Positions 4,452 to 54,459 of a DNA stretch of 64,000 bases are shown here, in pieces (position 1 is the stretch's first letter; each line of letters begins with the position of its first letter). The stretch is from a virus. Taxonomy: Duplodnaviria > Caudoviricetes. The notes under the pieces are model-generated. The model was not told the origin of the DNA and did no database searches. It was given only the letters and a program-made list of their open reading frames with translations. The DNA is taken from the IMG/VR virus record IMGVR_UViG_3300043786_001086, one strand, 5' to 3'. The position numbers were made by a program, and so were the translations under genes.

Positions 4452-5270
4452 ATGTCCTTACAACCTTCAAAATATAAAGTATTCACAAAACAAGTTTATA
4501 ATCATTTAGTTGATGAACATGGTGATAATGATATGAATGTTCAACAAATTATGAGTCATATCAATAGTGATGAACTATTGAAACTTCTTTTGAAGAATGT
4601 TAAAAGAATAGAAAAAGTAGAGATCGCGTTTATGGTTTACTTCTTTTCACGAACTAAAGATATTGAATCTTCTTTTTCTAAAGTTCGTGGTAATCTTATA
4701 AACATCGGAATGTATCATTATAGAGATTTGGGTTATCGTGATATAACTTGTCATGAATGTGATGGATCAGGAACTGAATATTGTAGCACATGTGATGGTA
4801 GTGGTGATGTAGATTGTGATAGATGTTCAGGAAATGGAACTGAAGAATGTAGAAACTGTGATGGATCTGGTGAAGTAGATGGTGAACCATGTTCAGATTG
4901 TCAAGGAAATGGTGAAATTGAATGTTCTTGGTGTGATGGTAAAGGTGAATTTGGCTGTGATAGATGTGATGGTTATGGACAAGTTGATTGTGATTATTGT
5001 GATGGAAATGGTGACTATGAATCAAGTGATGAATACTATACAGAAGATGAAATTGATTTTTTTGGTTTGAACCCTGAACTTAAATCATTACCTGTAGATA
5101 CATTCTTGAACGATGATCAAGTTAATATGATATATCATTCAGAACCAATATTACTTGATATCAGTGAGGTTGACGACAAGATTGAAGTCGACCAACTATG
5201 CCGAAATTATGAAGGTGATTGTGAAGGAGATCCTCTGAATGTAATAAATAATATTTACGAAATAGATTAG
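4452..5270 (+). CDS. Protein with eight DnaJ-type CxxCxGxG zinc-finger repeats
   Basis: CHECDGSG...CDYCDGNG counted 8x; no J domain/HPD motif. Confidence 0.85.
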   Translation: MSLQPSKYKVFTKQVYNHLVDEHGDNDMNVQQIMSHINSDELLKLLLKNVKRIEKVEIAFMVYFFSRTKDIESSFSKVRGNLINIGMYHYRDLGYRDITCHECDGSGTEYCSTCDGSGDVDCDRCSGNGTEECRNCDGSGEVDGEPCSDCQGNGEIECSWCDGKGEFGCDRCDGYGQVDCDYCDGNGDYESSDEYYTEDEIDFFGLNPELKSLPVDTFLNDDQVNMIYHSEPILLDISEVDDKIEVDQLCRNYEGDCEGDPLNVINNIYEID

Positions 5271-26188: not shown

Positions 26189-27379
26189 TTAAATTTTAGT
26201 TTTTAACATTTCTTTATAAGCATTACCTGTATCAAATTGTTGTTCAAATGTTGGATTTGGATAATGTTCGTTTTTAATCCAATTATCGTGATGTTCAAAT
26301 GTTCTCCATTCATTATCACGTAATTCTTTTACCATATTCATCAATCCAGTTCCAACTTTCATATCAGAAGGAATTTCAACTCCACCATCTGGTGTAACTT
26401 TTTCAATTGTTTCTTCAATAAACATTTGGTTCAAGAATGTTACCTCTCTAGTTTCTTTAACACCATTTTCAATGGCATCATCAATACTTGATCCAAATGT
26501 GAATGGTCTATCAGATACGTCTTTAATACCACTTTGAATGGTGTCTTCAATACCGACTAATCTATCCGTTTTTGCTAACACAGTGTCCTTTACTCCATTT
26601 TGAATGGCGTCCTTAACCCCACTCCTTATCCTCATCCCATCTACTTCGGTGTGTCTTACCCCATTTTGAATGGTGTCTTCAACCTCATTATTTTGTTTTG
26701 GAGATTCAATTTGATGAACTATTTTCCCTTTCATCTCCATTGAACCCAAATAACCACTAGGTGTTGTTTCTTTCACCCCATTTTGAATGGTGTCTTCAAT
26801 GTATTTAATTGGTGGTGAATTGAATGTTCGTGTTTCTTTTACACCATTTTGAATTGCGATTTCAATACCACCTTTTCGGTAACCAATTTTGTAATTGGTT
26901 TCTTTCACCCCCTCTTGAATGGTATCTTCAACTAAGGTATTATTAGTATATTCAAAATAATCGGTGTGTCTTACCCCATTTTGAATGGTGTCTTTAACTG
27001 CAGAAATTTCATCCGCATTTAAATCCCAAGTGTGTTTCACCCCATTTTGAATGGTATCTTTAACCTTCAATGGTTTTCCAGCAGTGCTTAAACTTTCCTC
27101 AACCACATCAATACCCAAAAATCTTGATTCAAACCAGTTCTTGATCAAATCTCTTTCTTGAGTGCAGTCCTTACTGACTAGATCTAACTCATTTTGAAAT
27201 AGGTTATAGTTGAACCACAAAGTTTTATCTTTTGTGAATTCAACCACCCATCTTTTGTCTTCGGTAAAGATCAACCAAGTTGAACCTTGTTCTGTAATAT
27301 ACTTGTCTGCACCTTCAATCATTTGGTCAAACAACCCAAAGACAAGTTTCTCTAATTTTTTTCCTGATGGATTATTCAT
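26189..27379 (-). CDS. Family B protein (NPSGKKL domain plus 9 DTIQNGVK repeats)
   Basis: Probable start MNNPSG by homology with 27501..28070 and 38555..39106. Confidence 0.85.
   Translation of the reverse strand: MNNPSGKKLEKLVFGLFDQMIEGADKYITEQGSTWLIFTEDKRWVVEFTKDKTLWFNYNLFQNELDLVSKDCTQERDLIKNWFESRFLGIDVVEESLSTAGKPLKVKDTIQNGVKHTWDLNADEISAVKDTIQNGVRHTDYFEYTNNTLVEDTIQEGVKETNYKIGYRKGGIEIAIQNGVKETRTFNSPPIKYIEDTIQNGVKETTPSGYLGSMEMKGKIVHQIESPKQNNEVEDTIQNGVRHTEVDGMRIRSGVKDAIQNGVKDTVLAKTDRLVGIEDTIQSGIKDVSDRPFTFGSSIDDAIENGVKETREVTFLNQMFIEETIEKVTPDGGVEIPSDMKVGTGLMNMVKELRDNEWRTFEHHDNWIKNEHYPNPTFEQQFDTGNAYKEMLKTKI
26450..27064. CRISPR. In-frame CRISPR-like array 1: nine 36-nt repeats, 30-nt unique spacers (one 81 nt)
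   Basis: Consensus GGTGTKTCTTACCCCATTTTGAATGGTGTCTTYAAC, 66-nt period counted by hand; third-codon-position variation also present. Confidence 0.55.
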
Positions 27380-27500
27380 TTTATTTAATTTTTTCTCCGT
27401 TTTGAATGGTATATTCAACCCTTTTATATCGTAAGTCAGTTGATGTTCCTGTAGTGTGTTTCACCCCATTTTCAACGACATATTTCGTTCTCTGTTTTCT

Positions 27501-28070
27501 TTAACCATCATAACTTCGTTTTGTTTGTTTCACTCCATTTTCAATTGTGTCTATAATATAATGAGTCGCATCCAAACGCCACTCTTGGGTCTCCTTTACC
27601 CCGTTTTGAATGGTGTCTTCAACCAGGTCGGCCAGCGAAGCCAATTTTCCGCCGGTGTGTTTCACCCCATTTTGAATGGTATCTTCAACTGATATCCTGC
27701 GCAATGCGGACCTAACCTTGGTGTTCTTCACCCCATTTTGAATGGTGTCTTCAATTTGATACCACACATCTACCGGATTGTCCCAAGTTTTATCAACCTT
27801 TGGTTTATTCAAAAATCTATATTCAAACCATCTGGTTATGTATTCTTTATTTTCAACGCAATCCATACCAACCAATTCCATTTCATTTTTGAATAGTTTG
27901 TAGTTATACCATAGAGTTCCTCCTTCGGTATATTCAACAACCCATTGTCGTTCATTGGTAAAGATGATCCATAAACTACCACTATGATTGTATTGGTCAA
28001 CACCTTCAATCATTTGGTCAAATAGTTTGAACAAAATCTTATCTAATTTTTTTCCTGATGGATTTTTCAT
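27501..28070 (-). CDS. Family B protein (4 repeats; premature TAA in a spacer)
   Basis: Paralog; two further degenerate repeats continue in frame to ~27381. Confidence 0.85.
   Translation of the reverse strand: MKNPSGKKLDKILFKLFDQMIEGVDQYNHSGSLWIIFTNERQWVVEYTEGGTLWYNYKLFKNEMELVGMDCVENKEYITRWFEYRFLNKPKVDKTWDNPVDVWYQIEDTIQNGVKNTKVRSALRRISVEDTIQNGVKHTGGKLASLADLVEDTIQNGVKETQEWRLDATHYIIDTIENGVKQTKRSYDG
27522..27755. CRISPR. In-frame CRISPR-like array 2: four 36-nt repeats, 30-nt spacers
   Basis: Repeats at 27522, 27588, 27654, 27720. Confidence 0.55.
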
Positions 28071-28071
28071 T

Positions 28072-28389
28072 TTAATATCCTATTCCTGTATCGTTAGTAA
28101 ATTCAACACCATTTTCTTTTGCGAACTCTGAAACAAGTTCTTCCACGATCTCTTTATCCATATAACCATAATCAATTGATCGTCCATATACTCTAATTCC
28201 AAGATCAGACCATCTAACTCTTCCACCACCAAGAATTCTCCAATCCTTTAATTCTGGTTCAAGTTCTTTGGATCTATTTGCAACATCTTCGTGGAACTCT
28301 CCATGTCCTGAACGAAATACATATTCACCATCTTTTTCCAAGATCACACATTTGCGTAATTTATCTTTTTCAATAATAACTTTTTCCAT
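28072..28389 (-). CDS. Hypothetical protein
   Basis: FHEDV...ILGGGR...YGRS..YG; TAnnTTTG 4 nt upstream. Confidence 0.75.
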   Translation of the reverse strand: MEKVIIEKDKLRKCVILEKDGEYVFRSGHGEFHEDVANRSKELEPELKDWRILGGGRVRWSDLGIRVYGRSIDYGYMDKEIVEELVSEFAKENGVEFTNDTGIGY

Positions 28390-28460
28390 AATACAAATAT
28401 AAGATTTTTTTAAAGTTCAGACAATAGGTATTTATACTAAACTTTTCGTTCAAAATAAAT

Positions 28461-28676
28461 TTATCTTGATCTTAACCATAAAGCATGACTTGGGAGTTTG
28501 TCTCTTAAAACACCATTTTCCAATAACACCTGAAATAGTGCCGCTTGACCTGGCATGCATCTAACAGAGATTATAACTCCTGGTGTCAATTCACCAAGTC
28601 CTTTTTTATGTTGATACATGTATTCATTTCTAACCCAAACTTTTAAGGGAAAGAAGTTGTGTTCAATATAAGCCAT
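28461..28676 (-). pseudogene. 3'-truncated copy of 18942..19574
   Basis: Aligns for 66 aa to DKLPSHAL then diverges and stops. Confidence 0.8.
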
Positions 28677-28786
28677 TATTTCTTTTTTCTTTTCTTAAAA
28701 TATCTATAGAGTAAATAAAACCCGATTATGTTGATTACAAATAATATTCCATATAGATGAACATAAGTTTCTAAAACGTTTGTCAT
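28676..28786 (-). CDS. Single-TM peptide (36 aa)
   Basis: MTNVLETYVHLYGILFVINIIGFYLLYRYFKKRKKE; paralog of 19574..19681. Confidence 0.7.
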   Translation of the reverse strand: MTNVLETYVHLYGILFVINIIGFYLLYRYFKKRKKK

Positions 28787-29100
28787 ATGCTGTATTTATA
28801 TACTCCATTCTCAAACTCAACGTCCATTAACCCATCATTTTCCAAGATCTTTTCAATTTGATCTGCTTGAAATTTAATGTTTTCTGGTTCCATGAAGACC
28901 TTATACGCCTGATTTGAAGAAAGTTTATTTTGTGTGACCAAATTATAAATTGTCTCGTTTTCACATTTTATAAGTGATCCGTGTTGACCTGCAACTGTAA
29001 CTATAACATTATCACCGATTTCGATTTTCTCTAACGATACGATATATGGTTTTTCTTGGACCATAATCATTTTTACTTTTTGTTTTGTTGTTTCACTCAT
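28783..29100 (-). CDS. Hypothetical protein
   Basis: C-terminus duplicated at 19678-19750. Confidence 0.75.
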   Translation of the reverse strand: MSETTKQKVKMIMVQEKPYIVSLEKIEIGDNVIVTVAGQHGSLIKCENETIYNLVTQNKLSSNQAYKVFMEPENIKFQADQIEKILENDGLMDVEFENGVYKYSI

Positions 29101-29441
29101 AATCTAATACCGTATAATTCTGATACGGCCTCCATGTATTTTTTTAAATTTATTACAGATTGTTTAAAATCTGTTTTTGGTAGTTCTTCAAATGTTTGAG
29201 CCAACTCATCATCGGTCAAAGTATTGATACAACTATCATAGATGTCTTTTAGTATCTGTAAATAAATTTCTTCTTTACTATAAGTATCATCTATTTTTTT
29301 TTCAAGCACCTGACCTTCCAACTCAACACAATAGTCGATTAACTCCTCAATAGGTGCCAAATCCATTAAATGTTCATTACCTTTGAATATTTGATTTATG
29401 TTCTTCATAATGTTTATCGCATAATGTGGTATGCCAACCAA
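29097..29441 (-). CDS. Hypothetical protein
   Basis: Paralog of 41403..41729. Confidence 0.75.
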   Translation of the reverse strand: MVGIPHYAINIMKNINQIFKGNEHLMDLAPIEELIDYCVELEGQVLEKKIDDTYSKEEIYLQILKDIYDSCINTLTDDELAQTFEELPKTDFKQSVINLKKYMEAVSELYGIRL

Positions 29442-29763
29442 TATTTGTTCTTAATTCTCCTTTTTCGCCACATTTCTCACAAGTTTCATAACTTAGATTT
29501 TCCGCCCGACTTATTCTTTTATGAACCTCGTTTGATGCCCCGTTAATATAAAATCTTAATCCACCAAACTTTTCCTTCACCTGACAAGTTTGTTTATCCC
29601 ATCCTAACTCAATAAGATCAATTATAAGATCCTTAATTAGTGAATACCAACCAGAACCAACATCAAAGAATCCGGAGTCTTTAATTGGTGGTCTATCATT
29701 GTAAAATCCATTTTCTAATCCTCCAATGGATTCCAAAAACTCATTCATTTCTTTATCTGTCAT
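29377..29763 (-). CDS. Hypothetical protein with C-terminal zinc finger
   Basis: QVKEKFGGLRFY...CEKCG..G...LC..H; paralog of 41689..42072. Confidence 0.8.
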   Translation of the reverse strand: MTDKEMNEFLESIGGLENGFYNDRPPIKDSGFFDVGSGWYSLIKDLIIDLIELGWDKQTCQVKEKFGGLRFYINGASNEVHKRISRAENLSYETCEKCGEKGELRTNIGWHTTLCDKHYEEHKSNIQR

Positions 29764-29853
29764 ATAATATAATTTAAAGATTCCAAATTGATTTTCGTTT
29801 TTTCTTTGGAAATCTAAACGACCACCAAAGAAGAATCTTTTGAATTGTTCTTT

Positions 29854-30441
29854 TCATTTTAAAAAATTAATAACCTTTTCTTTAATCCCACTTTGTTTAA
29901 TACCTTCTCTTGATCTTGGTGTTAAAACAAAATTAGTTAGACCAGGGTTTTTATCCTCACTATCCAAGAAGTATTTTGATAAAAACTCAAGACTCATATT
30001 AAGATCATCAATCGCAACCCAATGTGTGACTTCAGGATGATTCTTTAACCAATGTCCGATCTCCATACTTCGTTCTAATTCCAACTCAGCACGAAATCTA
30101 AACGCATTCCATTCTTTTGGAAAAAGGTCTCTAAATATGTCAGTCACCGCAATTGGTCGTTTAATAATACCTTGACTAATATAGTAATCACCAAGTTCAT
30201 CAAGTGTTGCATGTAATCTCCAATCAGAACTTACCACTATTTCACATCCAGTTTCTTCAATGATCTCATTTAGAACTTTAATTGTCCCTTTATCAAAGTC
30301 ATCAAAACGATATTGCACCGGAATTTCTCTTGGGGTCATGGATAATTTTCTTCCTCCCCATTTGTGTTGTTTTTTGTAACGACTACCCCAATTATTAGAG
30401 AGACAAATTACACTATCATGATCTAAGAATATAACTTTCAT
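29854..30441 (-). CDS. HAD-family protein (Swiss-Army-knife RNA-repair type)
   Basis: IFLDHD.V, IVVSSDWR, WVAIDD. Confidence 0.8.
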   Translation of the reverse strand: MKVIFLDHDSVICLSNNWGSRYKKQHKWGGRKLSMTPREIPVQYRFDDFDKGTIKVLNEIIEETGCEIVVSSDWRLHATLDELGDYYISQGIIKRPIAVTDIFRDLFPKEWNAFRFRAELELERSMEIGHWLKNHPEVTHWVAIDDLNMSLEFLSKYFLDSEDKNPGLTNFVLTPRSREGIKQSGIKEKVINFLK

Positions 30442-31076
30442 TATCTTATTGTTTGTGTTAATCTTTCGTAATTACTTTTGTTTTCAAATTGTCTTCCAAT
30501 TCTATACAAGTGGTTTGGGGATAAACCAAACCAAGTGTCACAGTGATGGAACTTTGAAAATTGTTCTGTCAACATATCTGAATCATCGTCTAATATTGCG
30601 TAATCATCAACTTCAGGGTGTTGATCCAACCACTCTTTAATTTCTTCACCTCGTAAAGTTCTTCTATTACCAGTGATTCCTACATAAGTTCCTGGTTTAA
30701 ATCCAAGTTTAACAAATGCGTCTTCCCATCTATAAGGTGTTGATATATGATCCTCAATACGAAAGTGATGTTTCCAACTCGAAGAAACACAAATTTTTGT
30801 GTTAGTTTTATTACACCATTCGCTCAACCATTTCCACTTTTGATCACAAGTTTCTTCTCGTAAATCCTTGAATTGATATTCAAAAGTGAAAGACTTTTTA
30901 GGTGGTTTATAATCCGCCAAAGAAACTCCTTTTGATTTAATTCTAAACAATTTTCTAACCAATCGCTTTAATTCATACCACCATGTGATAGGTTTTCTCC
31001 ATCGTCTTCTATGTCTTTCTTTATAAAAAACATTAGAGTTCATAACTCCATCAATATCCAAGAATATAACTTTCAT
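30441..31076 (-). CDS. HAD-family protein (Swiss-Army-knife RNA-repair type)
   Basis: IFLDIDGV, VSSSWK, RG.EI..WL, YAILDDDSD. Confidence 0.85.
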   Translation of the reverse strand: MKVIFLDIDGVMNSNVFYKERHRRRWRKPITWWYELKRLVRKLFRIKSKGVSLADYKPPKKSFTFEYQFKDLREETCDQKWKWLSEWCNKTNTKICVSSSWKHHFRIEDHISTPYRWEDAFVKLGFKPGTYVGITGNRRTLRGEEIKEWLDQHPEVDDYAILDDDSDMLTEQFSKFHHCDTWFGLSPNHLYRIGRQFENKSNYERLTQTIR

Positions 31077-31205
31077 TTTAAAAATTTTCTGTGTTTTCCT
31101 AAAACACCAATTACTAATACTGCAAATGTAAATAAAATACCAACCATAATCAAATTATAGTGGTTTATATAAAATAGAAAAGAAAGTATAACTATTTCAT
31201 TATAG

Positions 31206-31291
31206 ATTGTAAGCCTCAGACAACTAATGAGTGCCGACCCATTATAGATGGATAAGTTGTTACTCCCCTCAAATTGTAAGCCTCAGACAAC
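31206..31291 (-). CRISPR. CRISPR-like repeat-spacer-partial repeat inside/at end of CDS
   Basis: GTTGTCTGAGGCTTACAATTTGAGGGGAGTAACAAC (31256-31291), 31-nt spacer, 19-nt second copy. Confidence 0.55.
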
Positions 31292-31662
31292 CACTCTTCT
31301 GTAAGTTGTTGTATTTCAGAGTTTTTAAGATCAAAACCTTCTTCTAAAAATGGCCAAATAACATCATAATATATATAAACATTGTTATTTTTTCTATCGT
31401 AAATCATTACATTATTTTTTTTTTCATACCTAAATAAAGTCCAATTAGGTTCTTCTTCACTCTGAACAACATCCAAATCAGTAAAAATATTTAAAAAATC
31501 TATAGGAGTTTCAATTCCTGTCAATTTTTTAAGATTCTCAATACCTCCAACTAATTCAGCGGCAGATTCCCAACCTTCTTCTTTAATAATATCAATTAAA
31601 GATTGATTTTTTTTATTTTCAAATAAAAGATTATACTGACTTTCTGTTATTATTATTTTCAT
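31216..31662 (-). CDS. Leader-bearing protein, family A
   Basis: Paralog of 764..1207. Confidence 0.85.
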   Translation of the reverse strand: MKIIITESQYNLLFENKKNQSLIDIIKEEGWESAAELVGGIENLKKLTGIETPIDFLNIFTDLDVVQSEEEPNWTLFRYEKKNNVMIYDRKNNNVYIYYDVIWPFLEEGFDLKNSEIQQLTEEWLSEAYNLRGVTTYPSIMGRHSLVV

Positions 31663-31685
31663 ATAAGATAAATACTTTGTTAAAT

Positions 31686-31903
31686 AAAAAAAGGGGGAGT
31701 AGCGAATTCCCCCTTTTAATTGTTACCCTAACGGATAACGGTCCTAAAAGCCCACCACTAAGGATGGGGTCTCTTAAAATAAAATCCCCACCATTAAGAT
31801 GGGGATAATTTTACCTAGGGGTGGGATTTTCAACCTGTGTCGGATTACGCCAGACACCCTACGATTGGTATTTTTTAATGATTGAACCAATAACAATCAA
31901 TTC
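31686..31903 (-). ncRNA. Candidate structured ncRNA (~215 nt)
   Basis: TATCTTTG promoter at 31909-31916, no usable ORF, GC-rich hairpins, ends in GGGGAA/CTCCCC terminator plus U-tract. Confidence 0.5.
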
Positions 31904-31924
31904 TTAAACAAAGATAGTGATTTT

Positions 31925-32443
31925 TTACAACTGCACAACTATTTCACCACTTTTACATGAATTTTCTTTTAAATTTTCTTTTTTACTTCTTGGTTTTACT
32001 CCAAAATATAAAAAGTTACCGTCCTCCGAAAATGCCGAACTTATAATTTTTAACTCATTATCATCTTTTTGAATCACAAATTCAACAAAATCAAAATATT
32101 CTTCATCTTGATTATCGTTTCTTACTTTAGTAAAAATAATTCTTTTATTACATGGATTGTGAATTTTAAAACTCTCAATAATTTTTTCTATTTTATTCTG
32201 TATTATAGGAACCAATATTTCATCAGGAACACCAACTCTGTAACCATCATCTGAGAGATTTTTTTCAAAAAACAAATCATAATTCTCATCATAAGTATTG
32301 TCACCATGTCTATCAAACCATTGATGATATGTTGATATTATTTTATACATCATATCATTGTAAACCTTAGTTCCTTTTTGTTTTGGGAATTTTCTGATTT
32401 CAAACAAATATTGTTTAATAACTCTTTCTATTAGTCTTTTCAT
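31925..32443 (-). CDS. Hypothetical protein
   Basis: 172 aa; TATTTAT motif upstream. Confidence 0.75.
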   Translation of the reverse strand: MKRLIERVIKQYLFEIRKFPKQKGTKVYNDMMYKIISTYHQWFDRHGDNTYDENYDLFFEKNLSDDGYRVGVPDEILVPIIQNKIEKIIESFKIHNPCNKRIIFTKVRNDNQDEEYFDFVEFVIQKDDNELKIISSAFSEDGNFLYFGVKPRSKKENLKENSCKSGEIVVQL

Positions 32444-32484
32444 ATGATATAAATATAAAACCCCACATTAAAGTGGGGATTTAA

Positions 32485-33213
32485 TTATAAAATTTCAAGT
32501 AAGAAGTTGGTGTCACCTTCCCAGTTCTTAAGTTGTGACTTAGGAACCCAAAATTCCATCACACCGATCTCTTCTACTCGTTTTAGGTAGTCCTCACGGA
32601 AACGATCCGCCTGACTCTTGTCTTTGATGTATTCAACACCCATGTGTTTAGCACATGTCTTACCCATCGTAGTCAACATTGAAAACTCGTCAGTCAAAGT
32701 CTTTGCACAACACACACAAACTTTTGCTCTCTTCACAGTCATCTTACCTGCGAACTTAACGGCTTTAGGTGAAATTCCTAAAACTTTAGTGATATCCAAA
32801 ATTGTAGGATTAAACTGAAGACCATAAGTCTCTTTCATTTGTTGACCGATTTTTCGACCAACTTGAATTGTATCTCCCTCAGCGGGGATATTCATTTTCT
32901 TGGTAGCCGCTTTATTTTCCTCTTTTTGAATTTGGTTCAAAGCCGCTGACACTTGTTTATCAGACAACTTACCATATTTCTCAAGTTTAGACTGGATATC
33001 TTTCACGAAAGAATTCTCACCAGTGTAGGCTTGAATTTTTTTCATGTCCTCAGTCAACTCAACCTGTTTTGCTTCAACAGGAGCATTTAAGATCTTTTCA
33101 ACAGTAGCCGCTTGACTTACAGTTAGTTTGCCATATTTAGAAATTACATCTTTCATTTTAAGGACGAAAGAGTTAGAACCTTGATAATTTTGGACGAGAG
33201 TTAAAGTTGACAT
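32485..33213 (-). CDS. Hypothetical protein with duplicated KYGKL(S/T)..Q repeat and CxC/CxxH zinc motif
   Basis: CVCCAKTLTD..S...GKTCAKH. Confidence 0.75.
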   Translation of the reverse strand: MSTLTLVQNYQGSNSFVLKMKDVISKYGKLTVSQAATVEKILNAPVEAKQVELTEDMKKIQAYTGENSFVKDIQSKLEKYGKLSDKQVSAALNQIQKEENKAATKKMNIPAEGDTIQVGRKIGQQMKETYGLQFNPTILDITKVLGISPKAVKFAGKMTVKRAKVCVCCAKTLTDEFSMLTTMGKTCAKHMGVEYIKDKSQADRFREDYLKRVEEIGVMEFWVPKSQLKNWEGDTNFLLEIL

Positions 33214-33289
33214 AGTGATGGTGTGTTTAAATGATTACACTACAAAGATAGTGATAAAAATTAATTCACCAAACTTTTTGAAAAAAAAA

Positions 33290-33943
33290 TTATCCAACAA
33301 CTCCAACTAAATCATCCAAATGGTGATCAACATCTAATTCAGAACTAATTGATCTTCGATCCATCATATGCACAATCTCACTTAAACTATATGGGTGATA
33401 ATTATTTCCATCAACACCAACATCAAGTCGTTTACCTCGACCCCACTTATCTTTATTAGACAAATGAACGTGTCCGTGTAAGTGAATTGATCCTTTATTT
33501 AATTCGTTCCAACTTGAGAAGGGATAGTGACACATCACAAAGTTTTGTCCGTAGATTTTAACTTGTAAGTAATCAGATACACTACTGAAACTTTCTCGAA
33601 TATTTTCTCGATTGTTTCGTATGTGGTGATCGTGATTTCCTAAAACAAGATGAATATTTTCACAAACTAAACGATCTAAAAACTTCCTAACATTTTCAAA
33701 TCCACCAAAAACAATATCTCCCAACATTATTAATGTATCATCTTGTCCGACTTTTGAATTGATGTTATTTACCAACACGTCATTCATTTCGTCTATTGTT
33801 TGAAAATCCCTCGTAGAATTGATTGGGATTTGTCCGTCTTGAGTTCTCCAATTTGTTACACCTCGACAAATATTTTTGTGGCTGTAGTGAATATCTGAGG
33901 TAACCCAAACTTTACCTGTTACTAATATATCATCAAACTTCAT
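33290..33943 (-). CDS. Calcineurin-like phosphoesterase
   Basis: SDIH, LGD, GNHD, CHYP, HGHVH, DVGVD. Confidence 0.88.
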   Translation of the reverse strand: MKFDDILVTGKVWVTSDIHYSHKNICRGVTNWRTQDGQIPINSTRDFQTIDEMNDVLVNNINSKVGQDDTLIMLGDIVFGGFENVRKFLDRLVCENIHLVLGNHDHHIRNNRENIRESFSSVSDYLQVKIYGQNFVMCHYPFSSWNELNKGSIHLHGHVHLSNKDKWGRGKRLDVGVDGNNYHPYSLSEIVHMMDRRSISSELDVDHHLDDLVGVVG

Positions 33944-34332
33944 ACTAATTTAATTTGGAATCGATTTTTCATTTGTTCTATTTTATCATCAGGAACTCCG
34001 TGTTGGTTGGTATTTCCGTGACGATTTTCTACTATAATACTGAAGACCATATATCCATGTTCTTTTGCAAGTTCAAAGTATGGTTTCATTTCCCACTCTT
34101 GTGTGAAGGTATTGGACACCGCAATTTTTTTAATACCCGATGTCATCGCATGTTTAACAAACTCTTGACATTCTTTATGAGCCTCTTTTATTTCTGAAGG
34201 AACAAAATTATAATTACCATCATTATCATAAAAATAATGATCGGCTTCGAATACGTTTGCCGTCAATTGTTTTGCCAAAGTCGATTTGCCAGAATTTGGG
34301 CATCCTCTAATTATGTATAGTATTTTTTCCAT
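33940..34332 (-). CDS. AAA_33/polynucleotide-kinase-like P-loop kinase
   Basis: RGCPNSGKST, VSNTF, HGVP...I..M. Confidence 0.85.
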   Translation of the reverse strand: MEKILYIIRGCPNSGKSTLAKQLTANVFEADHYFYDNDGNYNFVPSEIKEAHKECQEFVKHAMTSGIKKIAVSNTFTQEWEMKPYFELAKEHGYMVFSIIVENRHGNTNQHGVPDDKIEQMKNRFQIKLV

Positions 34333-34375
34333 GATACAAAAGTAATCATTAAAAGTGAGATAAAAAAGTCTTGTA

Positions 34376-34606
34376 TTACTTTTTTAGATAAATTGTATCG
34401 GTTGTGTAATAACAATAATTTTCCTTTGGAATATGACAATGTTGGAATTTAACGATTGTTGAATCGGTTTTTAGTTCGTAGTTTGTTCCATAAGCATCAC
34501 ATCCTGATTTACTTGATTTACAACTTGTTAGAGTTACATAAACCATAATCAAAATTAATTTGATGGTTAAATAAATGGTTCGATTTTTATTCATCTGTAG
34601 TTTCAT
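34376..34606 (-). CDS. Small putative lipoprotein
   Basis: Hydrophobic stretch then LTSC.S...CDAY. Confidence 0.6.
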   Translation of the reverse strand: MKLQMNKNRTIYLTIKLILIMVYVTLTSCKSSKSGCDAYGTNYELKTDSTIVKFQHCHIPKENYCYYTTDTIYLKK

Positions 34607-34911
34607 GTTCTTTTATTATTTCCATTTTTAGTGACCATGGATCAAAACAAATGTAGGTTTTACATTTTTTGACTTCATGGGTCATACAATCGTAATAGTA
34701 ATCACCTTCCAAAATTGGTTTAGTTATTACCGTTTCATAAATATCTCCGTCGTGTTCTATTTTCATTTGTTTGTGTTTTTTGTATAAAAAAAGTAAAAAA
34801 ATACTATTAGTATTATTGATATTAAAAAAGATGTTAAATTTTTGGAGTATAAACTTGCAAAAACATTAAATAACATCATAATGATTAAAGGTGAATACAA
34901 AATTAATCTTT

Positions 34912-35919
34912 TCATCGCCCAAAACCTACTTTACCTGATCCTTTAATTGTTGGAGCTTTTTTCAACCCTTCCAAATTATCCATAACTTCTTCAAATTCTC
35001 TACCCATAACAATAGTTGAAATTACGACTTCCTTCAAGTGTGAAAGAGACATTCCTTCAGTTCTTTTTACCCACTCAGAGACGTTTACATTTTTCAAATC
35101 CTCATCTTTTAATTTGTGACGAATATATGCTTCTCTAATTTCTTCATTTGGAAGTTCAACTTTATATCTCCGATCAAAACGAGATGGTCGATTTGTAATA
35201 CGTTCTTGTAGTTTCTCAGGATAGTTGGTTGTTGCAATATATACAACATCTTCGATCTGTTTAACACCGTCTAATATATTCAACAACTTACTTGTTGAGT
35301 GATTACTTTCCCCTGCGATTGAGTCAATGTCTTCCAATAATACAATTAATGGTCTATTTGGTTCAATCTTTCTAAAAGTCGCAATAAAGTCAATAAAGTA
35401 TTCTACATCGTCATGATCTTTAATGTTTAGAATAATCCCGTCGTTTTCAATTAGTTGTTTTGATATTAATTGGATGATACCTGACTTACCACAACCAGGT
35501 TCACCATACATTAGAATCCCACGCTTATGAACAAAGTTATACTCTCTATATTTGTCTCTACGATCCCAAAAATTTTGGATGTCTTTAAGGATGTCTTGAA
35601 TTTCGTAAGAAGGTAACTGATATAATTCATCTGTTTTAAAAGGTTGTTTTTTTATTGTGTGTTGAGATACTTGTCTATTCCATACTATCTCATAAATACC
35701 AGAAGGAACTTTATCTACAGACTTAAATGCAGGAACAAATTCTTCGTCTTGTAATGTTCCCCAACATGTTGGAGTTGCCGAGTTAGTGTTTATAGAAGAT
35801 TCTTCTTGATTATAATCAAATGAAGGTTCATCTGAATACTTAGTCATAATACTTATGGGTTCATTAATTTCTAAGTTGTCTAATTCTTCAATTAGTTTTT
35901 CAAATTCTTTATCCATCAT
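34912..35919 (-). CDS. AAA+ ATPase
   Basis: GEPGCGKS, LLEDID, TTNYPE.L..R...RPSRFD. Confidence 0.9.
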   Translation of the reverse strand: MMDKEFEKLIEELDNLEINEPISIMTKYSDEPSFDYNQEESSINTNSATPTCWGTLQDEEFVPAFKSVDKVPSGIYEIVWNRQVSQHTIKKQPFKTDELYQLPSYEIQDILKDIQNFWDRRDKYREYNFVHKRGILMYGEPGCGKSGIIQLISKQLIENDGIILNIKDHDDVEYFIDFIATFRKIEPNRPLIVLLEDIDSIAGESNHSTSKLLNILDGVKQIEDVVYIATTNYPEKLQERITNRPSRFDRRYKVELPNEEIREAYIRHKLKDEDLKNVNVSEWVKRTEGMSLSHLKEVVISTIVMGREFEEVMDNLEGLKKAPTIKGSGKVGFGR

Positions 35920-36113
35920 ATTTTATTTTTAACTTCTTTATTTATTATCTTTTTCCAATCTTCTTTTTTCACCGACATTCTTACATCATCGATAGTAAAA
36001 AATACCTCTTCTCTTAATTCGAGAGGGTCTTTAACTTTGGATGAATCAATTTTTAATCTTGTTTGATAATAACTTTCATTTGCGAATCGAACCAAATATT
36101 CATTTTCCATCAC
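35916..36113 (-). CDS. Hypothetical protein
   Basis: 4-nt overlaps. Confidence 0.7.
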   Translation of the reverse strand: MMENEYLVRFANESYYQTRLKIDSSKVKDPLELREEVFFTIDDVRMSVKKEDWKKIINKEVKNKI

Positions 36114-36376
36114 AATTTGTTTGCAATTTTTTTAATAATTTCTTCGTCTTCATTGGAAAGTCTAAAATGTCCGTTCCATAGTTTGGTGAGATTGTCTCGA
36201 AGTTCTGCTTCTCCGTGTGTTTCTTCTTCACCCCTTATAAGTCTTCTAATATCAGGATTGGGGTGTTTTCCCAATGTCCCATCATCATATAACCATTCGG
36301 CCATTTGTCTTTTGTCACTTCTATCCATGTCGTCGTAGATCTCGTCAATATCTACATGTAATCTTAAGTAAGGCAT
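36110..36376 (-). CDS. Hypothetical protein
   Basis: ORF in run. Confidence 0.7.
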   Translation of the reverse strand: MPYLRLHVDIDEIYDDMDRSDKRQMAEWLYDDGTLGKHPNPDIRRLIRGEEETHGEAELRDNLTKLWNGHFRLSNEDEEIIKKIANKL

Positions 36377-36425
36377 AATTTATTTGTTTTTTTAAATGAT
36401 AAGTAAAAAAGGTGATCCCATCAAG

Positions 36426-37553
36426 TTAATGGGAGTCACCAACATTATTTTTTTCTCCGTAGATCAAATAGTCAGGATTGATAACTTTTGCCACTTTGTG
36501 ACGATCACCGGTAATTGACTTTACAACAACACCTTCATGAGGAACTTTAGATCCTTCAATAAAGTTGTTGAAGACGTATTTGTCTTGTTCTTCTTTATTC
36601 CAATTACCATGATATAACACATCAACTTGTGGTAAATCCATTACCTCGAAGTGTGTTTTTTCTCTCATATATGGTTCGTATTCTCCATCAACCTCAACAT
36701 CAAATCCTGCAAATTTTATATCAGATAAACCATAGTCATAGTTTTTTTGTATGCCAGCACCATATATTTCACCATATATAATAAAACCCTGTTCCAAATC
36801 TTCAGGATTGTAAGTATCTTTTAGGTGATTCCAAAGTTTTGATCGGATATTGTATTTTTTTGCAACCTCATCCCAAACATCTGTAGAATAAAACCCTTGT
36901 GAGTCAGATCCTTTCTCAACATTATGAGACCCATAGATGTAATCAAAGGCCTTCCATTTATCACCGAAGAATATTTTAACTCGGTCCCACAAAGAAAGTT
37001 TTTTCTTCCTAACTATCGCATAACGAGCATTAGTTCCGTGAAGTTTTCTTGTTATAACCACTTCGTCCTCTTCATTGAACATATCGGGCACATTCTTTTG
37101 ATTTGGAAACTTATAGTAAACATGGAAGTTTGGATTTTGGTAGTATTTGATTTTTCTTCCACCAACACTCATTTCAACCATCTTAACAGGAGGTTCGTAT
37201 TTGAATATACCCAACCTTTCCATCATATCCATACCCTCGTAATATTGATCTCCATATCCGGGTATGTATTTAGTTGGTATTATTAAACATTCAGAGTAAA
37301 CTCCACGAAGTTTCACGGTTCTAACTCGTTGACCTTTACGAAGGTAACCAGTTACTCCCATACTATCAGATAATTCTTGTGGTATTACAGCGTCAGTAGT
37401 TGCAACAACAACCAAGTCTCCTTCTTTATATTCACCTTTTTTGGTTATGGCCATCCAACCATTAACCGTAACAAGTTCTATATTATCAGCACCTGGTATT
37501 TGAGTTGGAACACCAACTTTACCTACATATGCAACACTATTTAAATTTTCCAT
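36426..37553 (-). CDS. RNA ligase, DRB0094/Rnl2-like family
   Basis: N-terminal OB (GADNIE...RVRTVKLRG..SE), KLHGTN, YGEIYG.GIQ, HEGVV, K.INPDYL. Confidence 0.88.
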   Translation of the reverse strand: MENLNSVAYVGKVGVPTQIPGADNIELVTVNGWMAITKKGEYKEGDLVVVATTDAVIPQELSDSMGVTGYLRKGQRVRTVKLRGVYSECLIIPTKYIPGYGDQYYEGMDMMERLGIFKYEPPVKMVEMSVGGRKIKYYQNPNFHVYYKFPNQKNVPDMFNEEDEVVITRKLHGTNARYAIVRKKKLSLWDRVKIFFGDKWKAFDYIYGSHNVEKGSDSQGFYSTDVWDEVAKKYNIRSKLWNHLKDTYNPEDLEQGFIIYGEIYGAGIQKNYDYGLSDIKFAGFDVEVDGEYEPYMREKTHFEVMDLPQVDVLYHGNWNKEEQDKYVFNNFIEGSKVPHEGVVVKSITGDRHKVAKVINPDYLIYGEKNNVGDSH

Positions 37554-37577
37554 TTTACAAAAATAATAATATTTTTT

Positions 37578-38102
37578 TTATTCGTCACTATCTTCTTCAG
37601 AATATTCTTTCTTCATAGATCTTGGTTCAACAAAATCCCACTTGGTATTTTCAAACTCTTTAATCCATTCACTAACATCTTCTCTTGTCCATATTGGTTT
37701 GGAAGATGGTCGGTATTGAAATGGTTTATCTTTACTTTTGTCCCACTCATCAAGTCGTTCAGTTACATCTTCAATAAGATTTTTAGCCTTAGTGTGTTTA
37801 ATCCACTCCCTGTAATCATATTCTGAATTGATATACATAACATCACCATAATTATAAAACTCCATTTCAGGAAATTCCAAATTTGGATTATTGGTATAAA
37901 CATCAACAATTCCATTGTCGCCGTAATAAGAATCACACAATTCCCTTAATGAATACAGACTGGTTGGTCTTTCTTCCCAAACACTACCGAACTGACGAAC
38001 AGAACATATGTAGATATAACCGTCCTCATATGAATGAATAAGTCCTTCAATTTTATTTCTTAAAGAAATAAGTTCGTCCATTGTTAGTTTAGTTAAATCC
38101 AT
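37578..38102 (-). CDS. Hypothetical protein
   Basis: 174-aa ORF. Confidence 0.75.
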   Translation of the reverse strand: MDLTKLTMDELISLRNKIEGLIHSYEDGYIYICSVRQFGSVWEERPTSLYSLRELCDSYYGDNGIVDVYTNNPNLEFPEMEFYNYGDVMYINSEYDYREWIKHTKAKNLIEDVTERLDEWDKSKDKPFQYRPSSKPIWTREDVSEWIKEFENTKWDFVEPRSMKKEYSEEDSDE

Positions 38103-38105
38103 TTC

Positions 38106-38519
38106 TTATATTTTTTCTATTGTATAATCCCACTCAAGTCTAATGCAATTTTGTTTTAAACGATTGATGTGTCTGTAGTTGTTGATATAACCACACATAT
38201 TACCACTTCCAATTGCGTTGTGTGAATGAACCACAACATCAACAACAGGTTTACCATTCATCCATTCATTAACCAACCATTTAACACAATCCATACCGGT
38301 CTTTTCGGTAATGTTATCGTAATTAATTGTGTAGTTTGTATAAACATTTCTTTTCCACTCATCAATTGCGGTATCACCCAAATCGTGATCTAACGAAATG
38401 AGTTGGATATTATTCAAACCAATCTCATTTATTTTTTCAACGAACTCATCGTAAGAACGAACAACAATCCATTCTTTATCAACAGGCGTTCTAACATCGT
38501 CTAAATAAATCTTCTTCAT
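38106..38519 (-). CDS. Cyclic-phosphate-processing receiver-domain protein
   Basis: IYLDDVR, ISLDHDLG, TG.D..KW, HS.N..G. Confidence 0.8.
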   Translation of the reverse strand: MKKIYLDDVRTPVDKEWIVVRSYDEFVEKINEIGLNNIQLISLDHDLGDTAIDEWKRNVYTNYTINYDNITEKTGMDCVKWLVNEWMNGKPVVDVVVHSHNAIGSGNMCGYINNYRHINRLKQNCIRLEWDYTIEKI

Positions 38520-38554
38520 AATAACACAAATATATAAATAATTTTTTTGTAAAT

Positions 38555-39106
38555 CTATTTTTCTTTCACCCCATTTTGAATGGTGTCTTTAACTAACTCA
38601 TATAACGAATGGTAAGGGGCTTGGGTGTTTTTTACCCCATTTTGAATGGTGTCTTTAACCAACGAATCAATCTGTTTTACATATCCACGGGTGTTTTTTA
38701 CCCCATTTTGAATGGTGTCTTTAACTCGGGTGTTTTTGCTTCCACGATTCCAGCAGGTGTTTTTTACACCATTTTGAATGGTGTCTTTAACACACAAACG
38801 ATAATTGGAATTAGATTTGTCAGTTTCTTTAACCTCATTCTTATTCAAAAATCTTGACTCAAACCATTTTTGAATAAGGTCTTTATTATCAACACAATCC
38901 AAGTTTATCATTTCCATTTCGTTTTTGAAGAAATAGTAATTATACCATAGTGTTTGTTCTTTAGTGTATTCCACAACCCATTTCATTTCATCAGTAAAGA
39001 TCAACCACATACTACCATTATGGTTATATGTATCAACACCTTGTATGGCGTCGTCAAACATTCCAAATAAAAGTTTCTCTAATTTTTTTCCTGTTGGGTT
39101 AATCAT
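38555..39106 (-). CDS. Family B protein (4 DTIQNGVK repeats)
   Basis: Paralog of 26189 and 27501 genes. Confidence 0.85.
   Translation of the reverse strand: MINPTGKKLEKLLFGMFDDAIQGVDTYNHNGSMWLIFTDEMKWVVEYTKEQTLWYNYYFFKNEMEMINLDCVDNKDLIQKWFESRFLNKNEVKETDKSNSNYRLCVKDTIQNGVKNTCWNRGSKNTRVKDTIQNGVKNTRGYVKQIDSLVKDTIQNGVKNTQAPYHSLYELVKDTIQNGVKEK
38558..38791. CRISPR. In-frame CRISPR-like array 3: four near-identical 36-nt repeats, 30-nt spacers
   Basis: GGTGTTTTTTACCCCATTTTGAATGGTGTCTTTAAC at 38624 and 38690 identical, 38756 one mismatch, 38558 5'-divergent. Confidence 0.65.
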
Positions 39107-39127: not shown

Positions 39128-40375
39128 CTAAACTATCCATGAATTGATTTCTGATATTGAATTTAGACATATTTTTTTAAAAACTGACTTTATGTTATCA
39201 ATATTATTTGGGTCTATCCCCCCAATAGACATTCTAAACCAACCTTCATTTTCTTTTGATCCAAAATATTCAAACGGAACCATTCCGACGCCACAACTTT
39301 TGATTAAAAATTCGACAAAATTTTCAACACTACCGAAATATGAAACGTGTTCAAAATAAATTGATATGTATATCCCACCTTCTGGTTTTTGATAATCAAT
39401 ATTAAATCTTGATTTTTTCAAATCATCCAAAGATTCACAAATCTGATTGGAAATAAAAGAATATTGATTTATTTTTGAAGAAATAAAATCATTAATTTCT
39501 TGGTAGTCATTCAAAAATTTTCCAACGGCAATCTGTTCTGGTTTTGGTGCCCAAGCCCCGATGTGAGAAAAAATTTCAGTCATTTTTGATATTACACTTT
39601 TTGGACCAAATGTCCAACCCACCCTAACTCCTGTGGCACACAAGGATTTTGAGATTCCGTCAACACAAATTAAATATTCTCTAATTTCAGGACAAACATC
39701 CAAAGGATGTGTAAATAATCCTTCAGGAACTAAATCAGAATAAATCTGATCAAAAAACAAAAAAGTTTTTTTACTCTTTTCTTTGTTAATTTTAACTATT
39801 TCATCACATATTTGCTTAAGTGTATCCTTATCGATAACTCGTCCTGTGGGATTTTGAGGTGAACATAAACAAAGTAATCTTGTGTTTACTAACTTATCTT
39901 TAACATCGTCAAAAGTTGGAAAGAAAGAATTCTCGGGTTTACATTCTATTGGGATTTTAATTGCGTTATGTAAAAAAGAATAATGGTTGTTGTTCCAAGA
40001 CGGAACAGGATACATAACGACATCTCCAGGATCGACAATACTTTTGAATATGGTATAAATTAAAGGTCTAACACCGCAACCAACAAGAATTTCATCTTCA
40101 CCATAAGATATTTTTCTTTTTTTTCTTAAGTAATTACTTATTGATGTTCTAAGATCCAATTCACCTGAAGACATTGGATAATTAGTCAAATCATTTTCAT
40201 ATGATTCAACTATATAATTTTTGAGTTTTTTGGGTATCGGATTTACTACAGGATTGAAATCCCCGATACTAAAATTTTCAACAGGTTTTGATTTGGAAAC
40301 TTCTTTGATCTGTTGTGAAATTTTTATAATCTCAGATCCTACAATATTGTTTCCTAAAAATGATAGTTTTTGCAT
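39128..40375 (-). CDS. PLP-dependent aminotransferase class I/II (aspartate aminotransferase-like)
   Basis: SPQNPTG, DQIY, DGISKS.CATGVRVGW. Confidence 0.88.
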   Translation of the reverse strand: MQKLSFLGNNIVGSEIIKISQQIKEVSKSKPVENFSIGDFNPVVNPIPKKLKNYIVESYENDLTNYPMSSGELDLRTSISNYLRKKRKISYGEDEILVGCGVRPLIYTIFKSIVDPGDVVMYPVPSWNNNHYSFLHNAIKIPIECKPENSFFPTFDDVKDKLVNTRLLCLCSPQNPTGRVIDKDTLKQICDEIVKINKEKSKKTFLFFDQIYSDLVPEGLFTHPLDVCPEIREYLICVDGISKSLCATGVRVGWTFGPKSVISKMTEIFSHIGAWAPKPEQIAVGKFLNDYQEINDFISSKINQYSFISNQICESLDDLKKSRFNIDYQKPEGGIYISIYFEHVSYFGSVENFVEFLIKSCGVGMVPFEYFGSKENEGWFRMSIGGIDPNNIDNIKSVFKKICLNSISEINSWIV

Positions 40376-53220: not shown

Positions 53221-53344
53221 GACTAATATATTTTACTGTGTTTCCTAAACTAAATCCTAGATCCCAAGCATCAATCACTTTGATGGCCTCATATTCATTA
53301 TTTTTTCCTCCATAATGATTCGGGTGATTTACATGTTCCATCAT
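53114..53344 (-). CDS. DUF3310-family protein
   Basis: VNHP.HY...E.I.VI...F.LGN.VKYI.RAGKK...EDL.KA.WYL. Confidence 0.88.
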   Translation of the reverse strand: MMEHVNHPNHYGGKNNEYEAIKVIDAWDLGFSLGNTVKYISRAGKKGKDKELEDLRKALWYLEHHIKTLEEKNRNK

Positions 53345-54459
53345 TCTTCTCTATATTCTTTTAATAACTCATCATTAGATTTTGTCCCGTATTTTCCTTC
53401 CAATGTTTTTGCGTCAATATACGAATTCATCATATTTTTCATTTCATAAATTTGATGAGTGGTGTCTAACGATCTAACAATCTCACGAATGATTTTGTAT
53501 GGATCGGCATTTGAACCTGGTCTTCTGTCTTCAACATAACCCTTCCAATTTTCGGCCGTGTCTTTTGGAACCCTAATTGATGCTCCTCGATCAGACACAC
53601 CCCAACTAAACTTATCAATCGCCTGAGTTTCATATTCACCAGTAAGTCTTAAATGATTTTGTGATCCGTATGCTTTGATGTGATCTTCATGTCTTGATTC
53701 AAATGCATTGAATAGTGCCATAAAATATTCTTCATTCCCTTCATGTCTCATCATGTCAGTCGAAAAGTTTGTATGAAGACCTGATCCATTCCATTCACCG
53801 TGTGTTAATGGTTTTGGGTGTAGTTCAATGTGGTATCCATATTTTTCTGAAGTTTTAAACAAGAAATAACGAGTCATCCAAAGATCATCACCACCTTTAT
53901 GTTTTCCTTGTGAGAACACTTGATATTCCCATTGACCTAAAGCAACCTCAGCGTTTGTTCCTGTAATATCAATTCCATAATTTAAACACATGTTCAAATG
54001 TTCGTCAACAAATGGACGACCCACCACATTATGTCCAACTCCACAGTAATATTCGCCCTGTCCTTTAAGAATATTTCTCTTGTGTCCTAAAATGTTTCCA
54101 TTGATTTCTTCACGAATGAAATACTCTTGTTCAAACCCAAACCAAAGGTCTTCATAACCTTCACCAATTTTTGATCTTTTATTCGATTCATGGGGTGTCC
54201 CATCTGGGTTTAATACCTCACATAAAACATAAACGGTAGATTGCATGTCTTGAACATAGTGTCTTACAGGTTTTAATAAAAGATCTGATTTTTCAGTGTT
54301 TGCCTGTCCTGTTGATGATCCATCAAAGTTCCATATTGGAAATTTTCCATCTAAAAAGGCATTTTTAACTTTTTCGTATTCAACAATTTTAACTTTACTT
54401 CTTAAGTTTGGTTCTGGTTTATATCCGTCTAACCAAACATACTCCAATTTAATTTTCAT
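53341..54459 (-). CDS. glnII: Glutamine synthetase type II
   Basis: EYVWLDG, WNFDGSST, WFGFEQEY, NAEV..GQWEYQ, WNGSG.HTNFST, RLTG..ET, RGASIR, EDRRP.SNADPY. Confidence 0.92.
   Translation of the reverse strand: MKIKLEYVWLDGYKPEPNLRSKVKIVEYEKVKNAFLDGKFPIWNFDGSSTGQANTEKSDLLLKPVRHYVQDMQSTVYVLCEVLNPDGTPHESNKRSKIGEGYEDLWFGFEQEYFIREEINGNILGHKRNILKGQGEYYCGVGHNVVGRPFVDEHLNMCLNYGIDITGTNAEVALGQWEYQVFSQGKHKGGDDLWMTRYFLFKTSEKYGYHIELHPKPLTHGEWNGSGLHTNFSTDMMRHEGNEEYFMALFNAFESRHEDHIKAYGSQNHLRLTGEYETQAIDKFSWGVSDRGASIRVPKDTAENWKGYVEDRRPGSNADPYKIIREIVRSLDTTHQIYEMKNMMNSYIDAKTLEGKYGTKSNDELLKEYREE

Follow-up and report, generated by a model that had tools for sequence, protein, structure and literature searches.

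The stretch of DNA analysed here (64,000 nt; hereafter, the window) comes from the IMG/VR virus record IMGVR_UViG_3300043786_001086 (Duplodnaviria; Caudoviricetes). Its guanine plus cytosine (GC) content is 30–32%, nearly all of its genes lie on the minus strand, and its phage-type genes encode an RNA ligase, an AAA ATPase, a phosphoesterase, a thymidylate synthase, a DNA methyltransferase and homing endonucleases. Because syntenic metagenome contigs extend up to 283–291 kb, we regard the window as part of an uncultured jumbo phage. The same phage sequence was found in lake-water metagenomes from 2016 to 2024, and megablast and tblastn searches of 50,697 GenBank phage records gave no match to the window. 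Three paralogous genes on the minus strand (Table 1) share an N-terminal domain (N-domain) of approximately 90–105 amino acids, which precedes a series of modules, each composed of a 36-nt repeat encoding [V/I][E/K]DTIQNGVKxT and a following insert. We propose, with a probability of roughly 75%, that the repeat regions of these genes are CRISPR-type (clustered regularly interspaced short palindromic repeat) arrays that became, and remain, protein-coding.

The paralogs hold 9, 4 and 4 repeats of 36 nt, respectively, and all 17 are in frame. Thirteen of the internal inserts are exactly 30 nt long and one is 81 nt (26684–26764), and a 14th 30-nt insert sits after the last good repeat of paralog 1. 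All inserts of the three genes are free of in-frame stop codons. A first-pass annotation of this DNA had described three paralogs with 17 repeats and stop-free inserts, as was also found here; its count of 16 exact 30-nt spacers is slightly too high. The palindromic repeat core that it reported is real, but its symmetry is not perfect, since the commonest variant, GGG, gives an A·G mismatch. Selection for a hairpin in the repeat was considered and rejected, as this commonest codon breaks the stem that GGT would complete. The reported 66-nt insertion does keep the frame, and frame-keeping 66-nt insertions or deletions set near-identical relatives apart. The geometry is that of a CRISPR array (near-identical direct repeats of 23–55 nt that alternate with unique spacers of fixed length), with one reservation, namely that the phage repeats are less uniform than those of real CRISPR arrays. 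The true start of paralog 1 is probably an ATG 13 codons into the open reading frame (ORF).

Relatives of the three proteins number at least 1820 among metagenomic proteins clustered at 90% and form 448 clusters at 50%; all of them are unnamed. They share one architecture, a folded N-domain of approximately 90 residues followed by modules of VEDTIQNGVKxT and about 10 variable residues, and the lengths of the members rise in steps of 22 residues. The recurrence of this architecture in so many relatives excludes chance. In an AlphaFold prediction based on a 64-sequence alignment, residues 1–90 form a helix, four strands and two helices with a predicted local distance difference test (pLDDT) value of approximately 95. 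Pfam and PHROGs searches with the three paralog proteins returned sub-threshold noise only, and a search of the ESM Atlas gave no usable match.

The arrays are clearly translated, as judged from their sequence. The repeat was searched for in phage DNA at the nucleotide level, ignoring gene calls, and all of the 788 units obtained are in frame inside ORFs of the family, except for one remnant of two degenerate units beyond the stop codon of paralog 2. In all 185 distinct cases, neighbouring units are spaced by a multiple of three, and in 147 of these the period is 66 nt. The frame is kept in at least 1820 homologs. Every one of the 93 distinct 30-nt inserts is open in frame, compared with 43–73% in the remaining five frames. 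By codon position, the repeat varies in the order 3 > 1 > 2, and the amino-acid changes are conservative (V/I, E/K, T/A and K/R swaps). Real arrays with a related repeat have 29–31-nt spacers and contain stop codons in every frame. The phage arrays are always fused in frame to the conserved N-domain, for which a fold is confidently predicted. In RNA runs, only 4–13% of the sequence words of the window were present.

These features bear on the alternative that the window carries genuine non-coding phage-borne CRISPR arrays and that the ORFs are artefacts of gene calling. Spurious ORFs over arrays are known, and screens for repeat proteins filter out such "translated CRISPRs" as artefacts (PMC10392669). 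The multiple-of-three spacing, the open inserts and the codon-position pattern make this explanation inapplicable here; the constant in-frame fusion to the N-domain also argues against it, and we regard it as very improbable.

When 185,579 species genomes were scanned for ATTTTGAAnGGT in three copies spaced by 66 nt, 79 true arrays were obtained, with repeats either of a type II-A-like kind from Firmicutes or of a Bacteroidota class of the form GTTG...ATTTTGAAGGGT...CAAC. The consensus of the phage repeat on the plus strand is GGTGTGTTTCACCCCATTTTGAATGGTATCTTCAAC. It is identical at 30 of 36 positions to the repeat of an array in Parapedobacter soli (L051) and, in a comparison with 40 distinct real repeats, it is 23–30/36 identical to the 12 best. 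Outside the 12-nt core used for the scan, 19 of 24 positions match the P. soli repeat, a value reached by none of 20,000 shuffles. Synonymous recodings of the same peptide attain 30/36 in only 0.15% of trials (P = 0.0015). When translated in antisense, the P. soli repeat reads VAHTFQNGVTHT. Among arrays of this Bacteroidota class, the adjoining large ORF is Cas13b (700–910 bits) in six of eight tested loci; a seventh locus (L089) has a divergent Cas13b together with Csx27, and an array of Flavobacterium columnare abuts Cas13b. The likeness to type VI-B repeats, which the first-pass annotation had noted, holds on measurement. By these comparisons, the phage repeat is homologous, as DNA, to the class-2 repeat found with Cas13b in Bacteroidota, and the phage genes read it from the opposite strand, as VEDTIQNGVKxT.

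The repeat retains codons that are rare in the genome (Thr ACC, 95% versus 14%; Gly GGG, 80% versus 11%; Val GTG, 62% versus 10%). This usage is seen in every lineage, even where the N-domains are only 40–50% identical, which indicates conservation of something beyond the peptide.

The arrays closest to the phage repeat, those of P. soli and Sphingobacterium gobiense (L114), are small orphan arrays of 4–5 repeats. No Cas13b was found in either genome, the only Cas9 found is 110 kb away, and one of the arrays lies near a TnpB-like gene.

The inserts resemble random DNA. They have 40% GC in a genome of 31.6% GC, a near-flat composition across codon positions, and encode peptides rich in Leu, Ser and Arg. 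Each of 481 distinct decapeptide cassettes has a nearest neighbour that is either 8–9/10 identical or at the level of shuffled controls. This bimodal similarity agrees with the earlier description of the inserts as mutually unrelated, and gradually diverged paralogous sequences were not seen. When contigs of the Joint Genome Institute (JGI) metagenomes were scanned with 22 nt of the 60%-GC spacer GGKLASLADL (spacers are named here by their encoded peptides), three non-array contigs matched, and the full 30 nt lies inside a gmhA gene on a bacterial chromosomal contig. A stepwise search identified the nearest species genomes to this contig as Bacteroidota genomes of 2.5–2.7 Mb with 91–96% nucleotide identity.

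This donor genus (61 genomes) was searched with the arrays of the window and those of four sister phages, and matches of 50 bits or more were taken as strong protospacers. Five strong protospacers, identical at 29–30 of 30 positions, were found in scattered chromosomal genes (gmhA, rpoB and three others) of this one small-genome genus, and four weaker ones sit exactly on the spacer bounds, giving nine in total (Table 1). One spacer with a weaker match, RGYVKQIDSL, is missing from a 94%-identical relative (P0004). For a distant member of the family with 24 modules (L014), six protospacers lie in a different genus, which belongs to the same order. An array-free control of 1.8 kb from the same phage, searched against the 61 genomes, gave nothing at 50 bits or above, and its best match was 46 bits. 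When 104 spacers were compared with 377 kb of phage flanks and the window, only chance matches of 12–14 nt appeared, and the spacers are therefore not self-derived; three spacer scans of IMG/VR returned homologous arrays only. The protospacer search that the first-pass annotation had suggested has thus yielded exact or near-exact 30-nt matches in chromosomal genes of one genus and, for L014, of a second. As these matches indicate, the inserts of approximately 30 nt are spacers copied from chromosomal genes of one genus, from either strand and in any frame. The donor genus is, by the same matches, the probable host of the phage.

Table 1. Arrays, spacers and other features of the window, by position. 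The donor genus is the Bacteroidota genus (61 genomes) in which protospacers were found.
Feature	Position	Strand	Description
Paralog 1 (P0001, 409 aa)	26189..27418	-	N-domain, 9 repeat modules and C-terminal extension of ~85 aa
Array of paralog 1	26450..27064	-	9 repeats of 36 nt; inserts of 30 nt, one of 81 nt; degenerate towards 26450
Repeats of paralog 1 (low coordinates)	27029, 26963, 26897, 26831, 26765, 26648, 26582, 26516, 26450	-	
Paralog 2 (P0002, 189 aa)	27501..28070	-	Shortened relative to 232-aa orthologs by a 69-nt module with in-frame TAA
Array of paralog 2	27522..27755	-	4 repeats, 3 inserts of 30 nt
Remnant of paralog 2 array past its stop codon	27381..27500	-	Two degenerate repeats
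Paralog 3 (P0003, 183 aa)	38555..39106	-	Residues 1–90 predicted folded, repeat part predicted disordered
Array of paralog 3	38558..38791	-	4 near-identical repeats, 3 inserts of 30 nt; stop codon directly after last repeat
Spacer GGKLASLADL (60% GC)	27624..27653	-	Bacterial gmhA, 30/30; sense strand, in frame
Spacer CWNRGSKNTR	38726..38755	-	Donor genus, 29/30 (30-nt exact BLAST match shifted by one base); sense strand of 190-aa gene, out of frame
Spacer KVRSALRRIS	27690..27719	-	Donor genus, 28/30, antisense to 370-aa gene; weaker match, 46 bits
Spacer RGYVKQIDSL	38660..38689	-	329-aa host gene, 25/30; peptide identical, five differences all synonymous; weaker match
Spacer KTLNLKIEES			Arrays of window and sister phages; donor genus, 29/30
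Spacer QVSWNITTDE			Arrays of window and sister phages; donor genus, 29/30
Spacer RYAVPRRWNA			Arrays of window and sister phages; donor genus, 30/30, in rpoB
Spacer YPKELSPTCR			Arrays of window and sister phages; donor genus, 28/30, weaker
Spacer LHAPSMASFT			Arrays of window and sister phages; donor genus, 27/30, in aroE, weaker
Control stretch	29067..29096		28/30 to a single donor-genus genome (46 bits), probably chance
First family A unit	750..839		At gene 3′ end
Second family A unit	31206..31291		Repeat-spacer-repeat
Class I/II aminotransferase	39128..40375	-	Auxiliary metabolic gene, directly upstream of paralog 3
Protein of 1346 aa	43062..47102	-	Ig (immunoglobulin)-like CHU_C-associated domain and C-terminal sorting domain (Por_Secre_tail)
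Glutamine-synthetase-like protein	53341..54459	-	Auxiliary metabolic gene
ORF with unrelated tandem repeat	4452..5270		
Unrelated tandem repeat	4770..4896	+	66-nt unit, 1.9 copies

An ordinary 22-residue tandem-repeat protein, with a coincidental likeness to CRISPR, had been kept as a possibility by the first-pass annotation. Such a protein would agree with the presence of synonymous variation and with a module length that is not strict, the variable segment being exactly 10 residues in 56% (272 members) and 8, 9, 11, 12 or 13 residues in others. It is refuted by the protospacers, since the inserts are copies of unrelated bacterial genes. The cassettes are also mutually unrelated, so that the variable parts are not diverged copies, and the identity of the repeat to real CRISPR repeats is far above chance. 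We give this explanation next to no weight.

Nine of the 15 protospacers fall on the sense strand of the host and 6 on the antisense strand, and 4 are in frame, which is about what the filter for open frames predicts. A design of the spacers for RNA targeting was rejected, because the protospacer strands are mixed with no bias beyond this filter. In mRNA orientation, the 3′ flank carries a purine at position +2 in all 15 protospacers and at +3 in 12, and we regard this as a suggestive motif resembling a protospacer-adjacent motif (PAM).

Such a flank can also be read in terms of a function that is exerted first at the RNA or DNA level. A transcript from the leader-like N-domain end might serve as a CRISPR RNA precursor for a PAM-dependent effector directed against the host chromosome, or the repeats might act as a decoy for a host CRISPR complex, with translation being secondary (for example, avoiding Rho termination or decay). 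Protospacers in host genes with a consistent 3′ flank are what functional targeting needs, hits on both strands fit DNA targeting, and the invariant 17-nt core and the retained rare codons imply a constraint at the nucleotide level. Two further VI-B-like repeat-spacer-repeat units occur in the window, one with a host-matching spacer, and arrays of huge phages that are aimed at host genes have been reported (PMC7162821). However, the repeats of one array differ at many positions in the codon pattern of a protein, unlike an RNA handle, and C-terminal cassettes such as EDGDWLDGDER are conserved and recur in distant members. Furthermore, no effector gene was found in the window, the partial phage records or the closest donor-genus genomes; in particular, no cas13b, csx27 or csx28 adjoins the arrays in the window, and five donor-genus genomes contain no Cas13b. 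Searches of the closest donor genomes gave no Cas1 and no look-alike arrays either. Rfam and tRNA scans of the whole window found nothing. We consider a guide or decoy function to be an unlikely explanation of the arrays.

The two additional units, which we call family A, have the following features. The first has a 31-nt spacer between a 36-nt repeat, the ends of which are GTTG...CAAC, and a partial second copy of this repeat. Its repeat is approximately 25/36 identical to a canonical Cas13b repeat, as counted by eye, and its spacer matches the donor genus over 33 nt at 94% (51.8 bits). The second has its own repeat variant, and its 31-nt spacer has no match among the 61 donor-genus genomes.

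The arrays are polar. Repeats are nearest to the consensus beside the N-domain and decay toward the C-terminus, with 3.1 versus 9.0 mismatches at the two ends in 23 family genes (Wilcoxon p = 2.7e-5) and a rho of 0.56 along the array (p = 3e-25). The decay toward one end noted in the first-pass annotation is therefore real, the C-terminal end being the worse. In the window lineage, the host-matching cassettes lie at the N-domain end (p = 5e-4).

The arrays also change rapidly. Compared with four IMG/VR contigs, the N-domains of the window are 99.0–99.3% identical and shared cassettes differ by 0–2 nt, whereas the arrays differ by at least 10 whole modules. In swaps that could be dissected, the exchanged piece includes the adjoining end of each of the two repeats, with the crossover in the invariant core, and one repeat of a relative is a chimera of two window repeats. 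As these footprints indicate, homologous recombination carries cassettes from one array to another, and its crossovers lie in the invariant 17-nt core, ACCATTCAAAATGGGGT; recombination may also account for the frozen state of this core. In paralog 2, the stop-bearing module shortens the product from 232 to 189 residues, and the repeats behind it are decaying, as would follow from an event that has not yet been purged. Logan contigs of four lake runs (2016–2024) contain the same phage and break at the 36-nt repeats, and other 30-nt inserts between repeats are present in the lake population.

It is conceivable that these arrays are fossils, captured once and fused to a gene with no integration at present. 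Cassettes would then only be shuffled, duplicated or lost, and new spacers would come from canonical arrays with the same repeat elsewhere in the phage or in a host strain. The chimeric repeat of the relative and the gain of GGKLASLADL, which is flanked by non-identical repeats, are footprints of recombination; cassettes are common to different proteins in differing orders, and no integrase was found. Against this, repeat units occur only inside family ORFs in all phage DNA searched, the 61 donor-genus genomes contain no look-alike arrays, and matches of 29–30/30 to present-day genomes argue for recent capture. The stop-bearing module of paralog 2 is also what an unfiltered fresh event would look like. 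On balance, a purely fossil origin appears quite improbable.

For the origin of arrays that are still both CRISPR-type and protein-coding, we propose the following mechanism. New modules would arise when fragments of host DNA are integrated during infection by a Cas1-Cas2-like process that is ruler-measured and PAM-guided. In the window lineage, integration would occur preferentially at the N-domain end, with the N-domain acting as a leader, and selection would afterwards remove modules that shift the frame or carry a stop codon. The product would consist of a folded N-domain and a disordered tail, in which the constant 12-residue motif is present in variable copy number between effectively random host-derived decapeptides. 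This motif would be the working unit, putatively in multivalent binding, and spacer integration would be the engine that alters copy number and linker content. That a widespread lake jumbo phage lineage runs CRISPR-type spacer integration as an ongoing engine of protein diversification, with variability itself under selection (as a means of escaping or saturating a host sensor, for example), is put forward tentatively, at somewhat short of even odds. In this reading, 30-bp pieces of host DNA would enter between repeats that serve at the same time as codons, and every phage strain would thereby own a distinct collection of random decapeptides within a multivalent disordered protein.

Several observations weigh against translated arrays that are still gaining spacers. 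No cas1, cas9, cas13b or other integrase candidate was found in the window or in seven partial phage records. PADLOC applied to its 85 ORFs gave no Cas among the best 25 of 85 matched families, Pfam gave no strong Cas match for 10 large ORFs of the window, and Cas1 was not found in the partial phage records. The donor genus offers little more, with Cas1 in 2 of 61 genomes and the above-mentioned lack of look-alike arrays. The repeats flanking the recent module GGKLASLADL are not identical copies, from which it follows that this module came by recombination and not by in-situ integration. In L014, host-matching spacers occur all along the array and are not N-proximal. Canonical Cas13b loci have their degenerate repeats at the 3′ end in the repeat-sense orientation, so that the phage repeat is inverted relative to the young end when compared with canonical VI-B arrays. 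By score alone, the four weaker protospacers (46-bit level) are at the noise level of the control, and the flank motif derives from 15 sites, of which 8 are strong. The repeat part has a pLDDT below 40 in the AlphaFold prediction, that is, a tail with no predicted structure. For the N-domain, Foldseek found nothing in the PDB at E <= 0.001 and only weak unnamed rows in the AlphaFold database clusters, and a wide VIA-align search reached a best Z of 4.7, to which no fold was assigned.

The first-pass annotation had named three observations that would speak against translated CRISPR-like arrays, namely inserts that align as gradually diverged paralogs, a lack of external matches and a lack of polarity. 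Each was tested, and unrelated inserts, external matches and polarity were found, which supports its reading.

CRISPR arrays are defined as non-coding memory banks. The present arrays combine CRISPR hallmarks at the DNA level (a Cas13b-like repeat, ruler-length spacers from another genome, a suggestive flank motif, polarity and rapid turnover) with clear selection for translation in a family of thousands. They share with type VI-B (Cas13b) arrays the 36-nt repeat, the 30-nt spacer, repeat identity of up to 30/36, GTTG/CAAC-like ends with a ATTTTGAAnGGT centre, unique spacers and degenerate repeats at one end. Unlike those arrays, they have no adjoining cas13b or csx27/28, lie inside an ORF and are read as protein; their spacer lengths are only multiples of three, their repeats vary within an array, and the repeat is inverted relative to the young end. 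Their spacers come from bacterial chromosomal genes on either strand and are thus not designed against RNA. RNA anti-CRISPRs, or solitary repeat units in phages, which Camara-Wilpert et al. reportedly presented in 2023, are said to be non-coding, usually with no spacer or one, and to act as RNA. In both cases a phage carries mimics of host CRISPR repeats.

Diversity-generating retroelements (DGRs), such as that of Bordetella phage BPP-1 (Mtd), employ a reverse transcriptase and adenine mutagenesis of a template repeat. The outcome is the same, a phage protein made hypervariable by a dedicated mechanism at the DNA level, but the present genes receive entire cassettes of foreign DNA, 10 residues each, between constant repeats. 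No reverse transcriptase was noticed in the window, where template/variable-repeat pairs were not searched for. Phage-borne orphan and mini arrays (PMC7162821, PMC6858448, PMC11656645) likewise show a virus carrying repeat-spacer units without a full cas set, with some spacers that match host genes. The known ones are non-coding and are thought to provide guide RNAs mostly against rival viruses, whereas the present ones are translated and under selection at the protein level. In a review of the subject (PMC11656645), the words protein-coding, translated and open reading frame are all absent, and no description of a translated CRISPR array as a way of varying a protein was found in the literature searched. 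Repeats of transcription activator-like effectors (TALEs) and lamprey variable lymphocyte receptors (VLRs) also combine constant units with localised hypervariation, and their variants differ by extensive rearrangement of the units (PMC10392669). Their variable parts stem from paralogous repeats or germline cassettes, in contrast to the segments captured here from the genome of another organism.

If integration is active, a virus can turn CRISPR adaptation machinery into a generator of protein diversity. Uncultured jumbo phages could then be assigned directly to hosts in a new way, since the phage carries pieces of its host, and the identity of the spacer-integrating enzyme becomes a testable question for a host genus in which Cas1 is mostly lacking. 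Should the diversification engine be true, this would be the first CRISPR array with a protein product and a second, mechanistically unrelated phage system of targeted hypervariation beside DGRs. Even a fossil would document the birth of a protein-coding repeat from a CRISPR array.

Other genes of the window are listed in Table 1. The sorting domain of the 1346-aa protein belongs to the type IX secretion system (T9SS); this sorting signal is specific to Bacteroidota and yet is encoded by a phage, which indicates a Bacteroidota host. Two auxiliary metabolic genes are present, one of them beside paralog 3. The unrelated 66-nt tandem repeat encodes a Cys-rich unit of 22 residues with a CxxCxGxG-like pattern.

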